Below are positions 1 through 32,800 of a DNA stretch of 38,221 bases, one piece after another. Location of the stretch: the IMG/VR virus record IMGVR_UViG_2585427971_000006; one strand, given 5' to 3'. Each line of letters starts with the position of its first letter. The stretch's first letter is position 1. The stretch comes from a virus (lineage: Duplodnaviria > Heunggongvirae > Uroviricota > Caudoviricetes). The notes below the pieces were generated by a model that saw nothing but the letters and a program-made list of their open reading frames with translations, did no database searches and had not been told where the DNA came from. The position numbers were made by a program, and so were the translations under genes.

Positions 1-171
1 TATCGCGCCCTCAACAATGAGTTTTGTGATGCGGTGCCTGGTGCCTCCAGGTGACGTTAACCAGTTAACAATTAACGCCGGATACAGAGAATCCACCCAT
101 AACACTGTTTTTGGTTTTAACTGTTCCGCGTGCGCTTAGCCGCATTCACCGCATCACAAAATTCACTTTAA

Positions 172-227
172 AAAGGGAGGCAGAGCAGTCACGGAGTAAA
201 ACTGATACCGCCAAACGTCACCAGAAA
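172..227 (-). ncRNA. dicF: DicF-like sRNA (cell-division inhibitor sRNA of Qin-type prophages)
   Basis: Reverse complement of 171-227 reads TTTCTGGTGACGTTTGGCGGTATCAGTTTTACTCCGTGACTGCTCTGCCTCCCTTTTT, matching my memory of E. coli DicF except about one base; ends in a U-run; lies downstream of the ydfC-like ORF on the same strand as in Qin. Ends are approximate. Confidence 0.7.
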
Positions 228-567
228 ATTGATAACAGAGGGCGTTGCAGCGGGGTTGTCACTTAAGCGTATGGTCAACCTGACAACCCGGTGTCCTCAA
301 CGGGGAAGGAATAACCCCGCCATACTTACCGCCGCGCCATTTCGCGTAGTGCCACAACCGGAAGCGCACGGTCGACGAAAATTTAACGACAGGCTATCTA
401 TGAACCAGCTACCTCGCCGTGCGCTTTCGCGTTATGGTCTGACTTTTCATGGAAATATCCTTTCAGTAAACTGTCAGTGCCGGATGCTCACCCGTGTCCG
501 GCGCACGCACTCCACCTCACCCGTGGAGAACTCCTTAATTACCAACCTTAGCTTCGTTGGTTAGCTA

Positions 568-786
568 TTAACGCTGGTATGTAATCATTCTGGCAATGCT
601 TAATGCCGCTGCTTTTTCCAGCCTGGTGATATCCTGCTCCAGAGCGGACAGATTTTCAGCCTGCTTAGCCCTGGCTTCATTGGCCCATTTCAGATCCTGC
701 GCTGCATTAATTTTCTGGCGCATCCACTCATAAAGTTCATCATCGGTATAGTCTGGCGCGATGATGACGGGTTCTCGTTTCTGCAT
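568..786 (-). CDS. ydfC: small prophage protein, YdfC-like (72 aa)
   Basis: Track ORF of 72 aa; size and position (last ORF before the DicF-like sRNA, same strand as the repressor) match Qin ydfC; sequence identity not verified. Confidence 0.6.
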   Translation of the reverse strand: MQKREPVIIAPDYTDDELYEWMRQKINAAQDLKWANEARAKQAENLSALEQDITRLEKAAALSIARMITYQR

Positions 787-815: not shown

Positions 816-944
816 TCAGCCGTTAGATTTTGCCGAGCTGGAAAGCGCCTGTTTAAACTCACTGAAGCTGAGAGCTTCTTCGCCTTCGGTAAGGCCTTCG
901 AAGTATTCTTCGTAAGCCTTTTTCATGATTGTGTCGAAATCCAT
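816..944 (-). CDS. ydfB: small prophage protein, YdfB-like (42 aa), absent from the ORF track
   Basis: Manual translation MDFDTIMKKAYEEYFEGLTEGEEALSFSEFKQALSSSAKSNG; ATG at 944-942 sits 2 nt after the stop of the upstream ORF; 42 aa matches Qin ydfB in size and position. Confidence 0.5.
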   Translation of the reverse strand: MDFDTIMKKAYEEYFEGLTEGEEALSFSEFKQALSSSAKSNG

Positions 945-945
945 A

Positions 946-1101
946 TCACTCACCTGAGTTTCTTTCCAGCCAGCGACGGGCACCATTTTCGGTTTTAAAC
1001 GTTTTGCTTTTGGTATACGTCATCGCGGTGAATGTGCCGTCCTGGTTGGGAAACACGCCGTACACCAGAGATTCGTTGTTGCCAAGATCGATAGTATCCA
1101 T
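946..1101 (-). CDS. ydfA: small prophage protein, YdfA-like (51 aa from internal ATG of track ORF 946..1182)
   Basis: Internal Met gives MDTIDLGNNESLVYGVFPNQDGTFTAMTYTKSKTFKTENGARRWLERNSGE, exactly 51 aa as expected for YdfA; first gene downstream of the repressor on the same strand. Confidence 0.55.
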   Translation of the reverse strand: MDTIDLGNNESLVYGVFPNQDGTFTAMTYTKSKTFKTENGARRWLERNSGE

Positions 1102-5630: not shown

Positions 5631-5749
5631 GACTGCGGGTGCTTGAGGCTATCTGTCTCAGGCATGAACACCAAAAGGCAGATAGAGAAAAGCCCCAGTT
5701 AACATTACGCGTCCTGCAAGACGCTTAACATTAATCTGAGGCCATATCT

Positions 5750-5809
5750 ATGCGACACATAGAGATTAGCCTCTTACGGACCGAAAGGTCAAGGAGAAGC
5801 AGGCTATGA
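5750..5809 (+). CDS. short leader ORF overlapping the hok start (mok-like, 19 codons)
   Basis: ATG at 5750 with GAGG 8 nt upstream; stop TGA at 5807-5809 overlaps the hok ATG at 5806, as expected for translational coupling. Confidence 0.35.
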   Translation: MRHIEISLLRTERSRRSRL

Positions 5810-32097: not shown

Positions 32098-32800
32098 CAC
32101 AGAAAACCCCCAGCTAGGCTGGGGGTTCCGGAAAGCTTTCAGCTTTAAGCCAGTTATTAAAACCCCTTTTGATTTGTTAAAACACCTTGCGGTCTGGCAA
32201 CTGCAAGTGTCAAACAAGAAATCAAAAGGGGGTCCCAATGGGGAACGAAAAGAGCTTAGCGCACACCCGATGGAACTGTAAATATCACATAGTTTTTGCG
32301 CCAAAATACCGAAGACAGGTGTTCTACAGAGAGAAGCGTAGAGCAATAGGCAGTATTTTGAGAAAGCTGTGTGAGTGGAAAAGTGTACGGATTCTGGAAG
32401 CTGAATGCTGTGCAGATCATATCCATATGCTTGTGGAGATCCCGCCCAAAATGAGCGTATCCGGCTTTATGGGATATCTGAAAGGGAAAAGCAGTCTGAT
32501 GCTTTACGAGCAGTTTGGTGATTTGAAATTCAAATACAGGAACAGGGAGTTCTGGTGCAGAGGGTACTACGTCGATACGGTGGGTAAGAACACGGCGAAG
32601 ATACAGGATTACATAAAGCACCAGCTTGAAGAGGATAAAATGGGAGAGCAGTTATCGATTCCCTATCCGGGCAGCCCGTTTACGGGCCGTAAGTAACGAA
32701 GTTGGATGCAAATGTCAGATCGTGTGCGCCTGTTAGGGCGCGGCTGGTAAGAGAGCCTTATAGGCGCATTTGAAAAACCTCCGGCTATGCCGGAGGATAT
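32098..32800 (+). mobile_element. IS200/IS605-family insertion sequence (boundaries approximate)
   Basis: Single Y1 transposase gene flanked by perfect subterminal hairpins CCCCCAGCTAGGCTGGGGG (32107-32125) and CCTCCGGCTATGCCGGAGG (32777-32795); about 700 bp; inserted between the lom terminator and the stf start. Confidence 0.6.
32238..32696 (+). CDS. tnpA: IS200-family transposase TnpA (Y1/HuH, 152 aa)
   Basis: MGNEKSLAHTRWNCKYHIVFAPKYRRQVFY...ADHIHMLVEIPPK (HuH motif) and the catalytic Tyr region RGYYVDTVG; track ORF starts upstream at 32187. Confidence 0.85.
   Translation: MGNEKSLAHTRWNCKYHIVFAPKYRRQVFYREKRRAIGSILRKLCEWKSVRILEAECCADHIHMLVEIPPKMSVSGFMGYLKGKSSLMLYEQFGDLKFKYRNREFWCRGYYVDTVGKNTAKIQDYIKHQLEEDKMGEQLSIPYPGSPFTGRK

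Follow-up and report, generated by a model that had tools for sequence, protein, structure and literature searches.

The window examined here is a 38,221-nucleotide (nt) stretch of viral DNA (IMG/VR record IMGVR_UViG_2585427971_000006, class Caudoviricetes), and we are concerned with its left edge, where an earlier note made from the sequence alone had placed the small RNA (sRNA) DicF on the minus strand beside a long inverted repeat. Judged by sequence identity, positions 1-230 (minus strand) are the dicF-dicB segment of a Qin-like dicBF operon (ydfA-ydfB-ydfC-dicF-dicB) in a lambdoid prophage of Escherichia coli ST131. Positions 1-174 are the entire dicF-dicB spacer, and within it the inverted repeat is the closing stem, P1, of a conserved pseudoknotted multi-helix RNA with a five-way junction, the two palindromes between the repeat arms being its P4 and P5 hairpins. 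We consider it probable that DicF is followed here by a structured leader whose P1 helix is an RNase III substrate on transcripts that read through the DicF terminator. The elements of the fold are listed with their evidence in parentheses (MFE, minimum free energy).

147-167, minus strand: 5' arm of P1, AGUGAAUUUUGUGAUGCGGUG (repeats, pairing, covariation).
16-36, minus strand: 3' arm of P1, CACCGCAUCACAAAACUCAUU (pairing, covariation).
144-146, minus strand: J1/2, a conserved AAU before P2 (alignment).
128-143, minus strand: P2 hairpin, GCGGCUAAGCGCACGC (MFE folds; alignment with P2 of the STnc100 model).
80-127, minus strand: P3, its base pairing GGA (125-127) with UCC (80-82) and enclosing the pseudoknot strand 117-123 and a variable hairpin (covariation).
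53-79, minus strand: P4 hairpin, GGCGUUAAU / GUUAACGUC, with the loop UUAACUG at 62-68; it contains the second palindrome, 56-69 (covariation).
37-51, minus strand: P5 hairpin, CCUGG[AGGCA]CCAGG, which is the first palindrome and lies within a near-invariant UCACCnGGAGGCACCnGGCACC block (covariation).
117-123 with 62-68, minus strand: pseudoknot of 7 bp, CAGUUAA with UUAACUG in the P4 loop (covariation).

The perfect inverted repeat described in the earlier note, 22-36 with 147-161 at a distance of 110 bp, is exact. A repeat search lengthens the arms to 18-36 and 147-165 (19 nt, 95%, 110 nt apart), and with G.U pairs allowed they become P1, in which 16-36 faces 147-167 over 21 positions with one A.C mismatch (20 of 21 paired; 21 of 21 in K-12). 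The palindrome CCTGGTGCCTCCAGG lies at 37-51 as the note had it, but GTTAACCAGTTAAC lies at 56-69 and not at 54-67, a coordinate slip of 2 nt. For the minus strand of 1-175 the folding energy is -64.2 kcal/mol, shuffled sequences averaging -45.6 (z = -4.8) and none of the 200 being as stable, and MFE folding of the same segment recovers P1-P5. Folding the whole of 1-230 (minus strand), as the note had proposed, also gave a structure more stable than shuffles (z = -3.6).

DicF itself was found at the left edge on the minus strand, as claimed. The Rfam DicF family (RF00039) matched from 226 to 175 over the full model (1-52 of 52) with 69.3 bits (E 2e-13), above the gathering score of 48 bits, and a U-run follows the match. 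Alignment to K-12 dicF left one difference, at nt 50. The features of the sRNA and of its two flanks are as follows.

175-227, minus strand: dicF, the 53-nt DicF sRNA, with its 5' end at 227 (RF00039 and alignment to K-12 dicF b1574).
178, minus strand: DicF nt 50, U in place of G, which puts a C.U mismatch into the GGCGG/CCUCC terminator stem (alignment).
170-174, minus strand: U5 tract (UUUUU) of the DicF intrinsic terminator (sequence; terminator role from PMC5069750).
1-15, minus strand: dicB ribosome-binding region, with the Shine-Dalgarno (SD) sequence GAGGG at 8-12 (sequence and EC958 annotation).
351-437, minus strand: a predicted irregular helix of ~22 bp upstream of dicF, 413-437 with 351-376 (folds).

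In K-12, DicF represses ftsZ along with further mRNAs in an Hfq-dependent manner and is processed by RNase E (PMC5069750, PMC10448788), and an RNase III-dependent 72-nt form of DicF has been described (PMC5069750, PMC9438474). Counted from the annotated K-12 5' end, DicF nt 72 is window position 156; within the 21-nt 5' arm of P1 this is nt 12, in mid-helix, and the reported 3' end of the 72-nt form falls between 156 and 155. The earlier suggestion that the long-range repeat might be an RNase III site or a regulatory structure is in this respect matched by the published K-12 work. An RNA-seq site in the dicF-dicB region, 1649470, was covered by 26 reads in an rnc deletion strain and by none in each of the two wild-type replicates, and was flagged as known (PMC5371410 Table S1); it corresponds to about window position 139. 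The other RNase III product is a 190-nt DicF precursor (PMC10448788), and by arithmetic its 5' end is expected at about 364, inside the predicted upstream helix.

From these data we propose the following model. DicF would be freed from the ydfABC-dicF-dicB transcript at its 5' end by RNase E and at its 3' end by termination at its own hairpin and U5 tract. Directly after the terminator comes a structured leader of ~150 nt, in which P1 closes the five-way junction (P2-P5) and the pseudoknot joins the P3 internal loop to the P4 loop. In transcripts that read through the terminator, RNase III would cut P1, a cut in the 5' arm yielding the published 72-nt DicF, and a staggered cut in the 3' arm, placed between 26 and 25 by the 2-nt 3'-overhang rule, would sever the dicB mRNA from the upstream operon. 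The dicB mRNA would then carry a leader of ~25 nt with its SD freed, and the junction and pseudoknot core would be excised. P1 ends 3-4 nt before the dicB SD, so cleavage plausibly frees the ribosome-binding region, in the manner of RNase III on the N leader of phage lambda. The identity of DicF, the fold with its conservation, and the mapping of the K-12 RNase III-dependent 3' end into P1 are established here or in the literature; we infer the second RNase III cut and an effect on dicB translation or stability.

A first scan for relatives based on DicB, with one genome per species, returned only 6 loci, all from Escherichia or Shigella save one in a probably contaminated metagenome-assembled genome (MAG), and because of this poor diversity we scanned IMG/VR by DNA motif instead. 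This gave 120 matching DNA stretches and, after pooling with the earlier loci, 77 distinct versions of the element. Distant BLAST matches had located spacer copies of 80-87% identity that lack DicF proper: in Rac-like and Stx phages they immediately precede kilR, in the P1-like phages P7 and D6 they precede terB within the ban operon, and a Klebsiella phage has the element as well. For covariation we used 33 representatives below 95% identity in a MAFFT alignment fitted to no structure, and we tested the five helices and the pseudoknot; P2 is invariant by construction in this sample and contributes no covariation information.

Among these representatives 92.9% of pair cells form standard pairs, as against 31-38% in slid controls. 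Double-sided (compensatory) changes occur in 23 pairs compared with 6-9 in the controls, and the covariation score is 0.218 compared with 0.03-0.06. The observed values were reached by 0 of 500 column shuffles for four of the five measures and by 2 of 500 for the fifth, additional pair types. The base of P3 is 97% paired, with two of its three pairs compensatory (GGA/UCC, GAC/GUC, GGC/GCC, GGG/CCC); P4 has double-sided changes in 6 of 9 pairs; and P5 is 100% paired, with U-A changed to G-C in 9 of the 33 sequences. The pseudoknot is 97.8% paired and is represented across the family by at least 12 different complementary sequence pairs, among them AAGGUUG/CAACCUU, UGGUUAU/AUAACCA, AUCAGCA/UGCUGAU, CUGGUG/CACCGG, CCAGUC/GACUGG and UGCCAGGUC/GACCUGGCA. 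In a permutation test restricted to hairpin loops, the joining strand formed at least 6 contiguous pairs with its own P4 loop in 75% of 72 distinct members and with the loop of another member in 15%. The loops and joining strands GGUGAAU, UNNGCG, UCACCnGGAGGCACCnGGCACC and GGAGGCACC are near-invariant, and the element measures 165-191 nt across homologues, the variation being confined to the one hairpin in P3.

This pattern bears on two readings in which the conservation has nothing to do with RNA structure. One is that the segment is conserved as DNA, either as a mosaic recombination boundary between lambdoid modules or as a protein-binding palindrome. The segment is indeed common to otherwise different phages (Qin-like, Rac-like, Stx, P1-like and Klebsiella), it stands at module joints, and GTTAAC palindromes exist in it; but the substitutions are overwhelmingly pair-preserving, including P1 and pseudoknot pairs of wholly different sequence, the orientation relative to transcription is constant, and length varies only in the P3 hairpin. 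We regard this reading as very improbable. The other is that the spacer encodes a small protein, for which a plus-strand open reading frame (ORF) at 17-139 (40 amino acids) and a minus-strand ORF from 145 to 65 (26 amino acids) are available. Coding potential was rejected: homologue indels are not multiples of three, with the length variation falling inside the ORF span, and conservation tracks helices, not codons. No SD-like context was noted for either ORF, and the reading is scarcely credible.

The length of P1 follows the context of the element. It is 20-22 bp in all copies that come after DicF or a DicF-like terminator and also in Klebsiella-type copies whose outer-arm sequence is unrelated, whereas STnc100, P7 and 'type D' copies have a P1 of only ~9 bp. 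RNase III acts on roughly two turns (~20 bp) of double-stranded RNA and needs only the helix. With 20 of 21 positions paired, P1 in this window reaches that length, and a two-turn length that is conserved fits an RNase III substrate.

Several points weigh against RNase III cleavage of P1 as the full account. The RNase III data come from K-12 and not from the allele carried here, and they rest on two secondary accounts; S1-type end mapping may be off by 1-2 nt. The RNA-seq site near 139 lies in P2 and not in P1, and with just 26 reads it indicates that the region depends on rnc and does not give the exact cut. In those relatives whose P1 has just 9 bp (STnc100, P7, type D), the helix falls short of an obvious RNase III substrate, and the effect on dicB translation enters the model as a predicted consequence. 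RNase III cleavage as such asks for no more than a helix; it leaves the strongly conserved junction, loops and pseudoknot unexplained, and these imply an additional function.

That additional function could be the principal one. The junction and pseudoknot core might be the functional unit, a cis- or trans-acting RNA of the STnc100/PasD family, with RNase III cleavage of P1 merely liberating or accompanying it; it might serve as a protein- or RNA polymerase-binding element, as stability or processing 'punctuation' of long phage operons, or as an sRNA scaffold. We hold this to be a substantial possibility, short of probable, and it is compatible with the RNase III explanation and does not exclude it. 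A relaxed Rfam search of 1-600 returned nothing except DicF and STnc100 (RF02076), the spacer scoring 38.8 bits against the latter (E 6e-7) over model positions 21-154 only, which is below the RF02076 gathering score of 47 bits; other spacer-type copies score 31-44 bits on this model. Reciprocally, a covariance model made from spacer-type copies only (R1) finds a genuine STnc100 copy elsewhere in the window, at 9779-9896 (plus strand), end to end with 51.8 bits (E 9e-14). Between ydfC and dicF, R1 gave no match to a degenerate second core. The prophage thus holds two copies of the core fold, one early-left in the dicF-dicB spacer and one late, the STnc100 copy. On the strength of the sequence and model matches we regard the spacer fold as a divergent form of the STnc100/PasD fold, and not as a member by the Rfam criterion.

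Other evidence for the core as functional unit comes from its near-invariant loops and joining strands (GGUGAAU, UNNGCG and the UCACCnGGAGGCACCnGGCACC block), from a covarying pseudoknot that persists through its many sequence versions, from the detection of STnc100 and PasD as RNAs (PMC12370729 and the 2026 preprint 10.64898/2026.05.13.724894), and from the placing of the same core ahead of dicB, kilR, terB and ash/rha-like genes as well as beside late-operon terminators. Relatives stand in sense orientation within long phage operons and adjoin intrinsic terminators; the genes downstream of them are dicB, kilR, terB-like genes, ash/rha-like genes or small membrane ORFs, and late copies between terminators downstream of Q occur in this window and in HK639. 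No member of the family has a known function, and in K-12 the contrast of 0 wild-type reads with 26 in the rnc deletion gives no obvious accumulation of the core, though expression of the operon is low.

A more specific version of a functional core would be a put-like processive antiterminator RNA that binds RNA polymerase so as to pass downstream terminators. STnc100-type copies do stand among late-operon terminators, and in the 'type D' copies a putative early promoter flanked by operators stands ~60-80 nt upstream of the core, which is directly followed by an intrinsic terminator, with no N-like gene between. The late-operon copies coexist with Q, however, and the core in the dicF-dicB spacer comes after the DicF terminator, at ~1.1 kb from dicBp, and cannot act on that terminator. 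Neither the Rfam STnc100 model nor R1 has a match in the HK022 genome, R1 does not match the annotated putL-like RNA of HK639, and the put RNA of HK022 has the form of a two-stem V of ~70 nt (PMC9378689) and not of a closed five-way junction. Membership in the put RNAs of HK022 and HK639 was rejected on these grounds, namely the missing model matches, the different architecture and the wrong side of the DicF terminator, and a put-like activity is improbable.

Single copies of the core add detail on these contexts. The P7 copy is at 1995-2124 of locus L011, and in both P7 and D6 the fold sits between tRNA genes and terB in the C1-controlled ban operon. Taken as sequence evidence, the P7 and D6 copies show transfer of the module between lambdoid and P1-like phages. 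HK639 carries an STnc100-like core (L255 44806-44929; 49.2 bits with R1) between Q and the holin gene with annotated terminators on either side, distinct from its annotated putL-like RNA at 34187-34312. In the 'type D' copies, found at L016 7880-8240 and at ~29 similar IMG/VR loci, an operator-like repeat and a putative promoter next to a CI-like repressor gene come shortly before the fold; a conserved GCCUG...CAGGC hairpin precedes the core and a DicF-like terminator follows directly, again with no N-like gene between, a layout that resembles an sRNA or a promoter-proximal antitermination element. Near-identical copies of the E. coli dicF-dicB sequence also appear in records of unrelated hosts (MT713136, Aeromonas phage AP1; PP818812, an Actinobacillus phage; and a Veillonella MAG, L006), where contamination or chimeric assembly is the likely explanation.

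Returning to the RNase III model, its first branch point is the DicF terminator, which carries the only change in DicF relative to K-12. Nucleotides 1-49 and 51-53 are the same as in K-12 (52 of 53 identical), and alignment to K-12 Qin places the sole difference, G to U, at nt 50 (window 178). The one-base difference that the earlier note had suspected is real; it falls in the 3' half of the terminator stem, where it converts C18-G50 to C.U. The 5' seed and the hairpin loop of DicF, which in published work are the regions for pairing with xylR and ftsZ, are unaltered. G50U weakens the predicted DicF hairpin from -15.9 to -11.3 kcal/mol; the canonical terminator stem is at -7.9 kcal/mol with U50 and -13.7 kcal/mol with G50, and an MFE register shift leaves 4 nt between stem and U-run. 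A simple terminator scan did not call the DicF terminator, whose U5 tract is present and whose stem carries the C.U mismatch. The maximal DicF-ftsZ duplex by RNAduplex is -38.5 kcal/mol (G50) or -34.1 kcal/mol (U50), nt 50 lying at the extreme edge of the duplex and within the terminator stem.

The exact 65-nt (65-mer) U50 allele was found in 93 E. coli records and the K-12 allele in 3049; G50U is a minority allele, mainly in ST131-like genomes. Among complete E. coli genomes, ~73% contain a DicF-like sequence. From the folding energies we infer that G50U weakens termination, so that more transcripts would read through into the leader and dicB and more DicF would arise by the RNase III route.

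DicF-like paralogues often lie directly upstream of the fold, as at L009 1990-2044 (Rac-SA53), at L050 3442-3490 and at many IMG/VR loci. They have the same GGCGG...CCGCC terminator with a different 5' sequence (e.g. AUUGCUGUGUGUAGUC) and reach 38-41 bits on the Rfam DicF model, under its cut-off. Their sequences suggest that they may form an sRNA family with different targets.

Over 570 nt the locus is 98% identical to K-12 Qin, and the spacer that leads to dicB has 97% identity and forms the same helices. Outside DicF there are five spacer changes, three in P1, one in a hairpin loop and one in the dicB SD (GAGGG here, GAGGA in K-12). Each of those in P1 is a transition by which pairing is retained or no more than loosened (U.G to C-G, G.U to G-C, A-U to A.C). 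The MFE fold also pairs the dicB SD GAGGG (8-12) with CCCUU at the 3' end of DicF (170-177), lengthening the outer end of P1; by this prediction the dicB ribosome-binding site may be further occluded in unprocessed transcripts. On the plus strand CGTGCGCTT occurs both at 129-137, in P2, and at 418-426, in the 5' arm of the upstream helix, and its complement AAGCGCACG is at 362-370. The 3' arm of the upstream helix could pair with either copy, and the downstream choice would give a 9-bp interaction bracketing DicF, which may be chance.

A sequence search matched the first 1200 nt of the window with 100% identity to E. coli ST131 chromosomes, EC958 and JJ1886 among them, and the order ydfABC-dicF-dicB is annotated in RefSeq both in EC958, at the identical locus, and in K-12. 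The genes around the spacer, with the second copy of the core, are these.

EC958 locus L001 5812-6000, minus strand: dicB; the window begins at L001 6001 (RefSeq annotation of EC958).
568-786, minus strand: ydfC (RefSeq annotation, identical EC958 sequence).
816-944, minus strand: ydfB (RefSeq annotation, identical EC958 sequence).
946-1101, minus strand: ydfA/DUF1391, ydfA-like (RefSeq annotation, identical EC958 sequence).
9753-9942, plus strand: bona fide STnc100 with its own terminator (Rfam, 132.4 bits).

The dicB start codon ATG begins at the base directly left of window position 1, which leaves dicB itself outside the window; its product matches Pfam DicB with 135 bits. The earlier claim that the prophage carries a cell-division inhibitor was borne out by DicF in this operon with dicB adjoining, DicB being a second such inhibitor. 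A simple promoter scan called no sigma-70-like promoter within the spacer on the minus strand, in agreement with PMC10448788, where an internal promoter was likewise not found. The antiterminator Q gene (7839-8660, PF03589) stands ~1.1 kb upstream of the late STnc100 copy, which follows tRNA-Met(CAT) at 8804-8879 and tRNA-Arg(TCT) at 8980-9054 and precedes the lysis genes. Two further RNAs were found on the plus strand, a sok antisense RNA at 5637-5808 (106.7 bits) adjoining a hokD-type toxin gene and the Hfq-binding RNA STnc490 at 32105-32228 (146.1 bits).

DicF and its processing by RNase III are already known in K-12. A literature search found no described structure for the dicB or kilR leader. 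Not found described were the spacer as a pseudoknotted five-way-junction RNA related to STnc100/PasD; the recurrence of this fold as a leader of division-inhibitor and other accessory genes (dicB, kilR, terB, ash/rha-like); the extension of P1 to RNase III length specifically when it comes after an sRNA terminator; and the minority DicF allele of this window, which is predicted to weaken its terminator. DicF and DicB are toxic cell-division inhibitors. A known RNase III cut in a conserved 21-bp helix abutting the dicB ribosome-binding site offers a testable model that couples DicF maturation to dicB expression, and the G50U allele is a natural variant for the balance of termination and processing. 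The same fold fronts kilR, the division inhibitor of Rac, as well as terB and ash/rha-like genes, and forms the core of STnc100/PasD; this suggests that prophage sRNAs and 'spacers' catalogued as unrelated share one structural module, whose function could be solved once for all. More tentatively, and as a real possibility short of probable, the dicF-dicB spacer and STnc100/PasD could together with the leaders of kilR and of P1/P7 terB be one undefined class of pseudoknot-locked five-way-junction phage RNA with a specific molecular partner or activity, of which RNase III cleavage is only the visible part. If so, the RNA might for example bind RNA polymerase, the ribosome or a nuclease, punctuating long phage operons and gating toxic genes such as dicB and kilR.

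The element can be set beside several known systems. The prophage differs from the decayed Qin of K-12 in additionally having lysis and late-region genes (Q, holin and endolysin-like ORFs). With STnc100/PasD, which the 2026 preprint (10.64898/2026.05.13.724894) links with each other, the spacer shares a P1 that ends in GGUG/CACC and is followed by AAU, a P2 with a UNNGCG loop, the P4 hairpin, the UCACC-P5(GGAGGCACC)-GGCACC block, the same covarying pseudoknot position and reciprocal model matches. The pseudoknot is absent from the Rfam STnc100 structure and was not seen in the parts of that preprint consulted, and a term search of its text gave no mention of DicF, dicB or kilR. Unlike STnc100, the spacer lacks the 5' leader (model 1-20) and the 3' terminator (155-206), neither of which aligns, and has the dicB ORF in the terminator's place; its P1 is 21 bp where that of STnc100 is ~8-9 bp; and its place is in the early-left operon, with an sRNA terminator before it and an ORF after it, whereas STnc100 is found downstream of Q or stx in the late operon, one copy being 75 nt downstream of stx2B (PMC12370729). 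With the put RNAs of HK022 and HK639 it has in common that both are cis-acting structured RNAs of lambdoid early operons, and the 'type D' copies occupy the promoter-proximal position of putL.

The nutL-N interval of lambda is highly structured according to PMC5725501, which cites Wilson 2002. As in the lambda N leader (nutL to the N ribosome-binding site), a long-range helix here closes a structured region of ~110 nt before the SD of a small early-left gene; the element upstream of it differs, being an sRNA with a terminator and not a nut site. To our knowledge the lambda N leader, which we did not search, has no sequence similarity to the spacer, and we know of no such junction or pseudoknot there. 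In the work of Kameyama in 1991 and Wilson in 2002, host RNase III reportedly cuts both arms of the lambda N-leader helix and thereby alters translation of the downstream gene.

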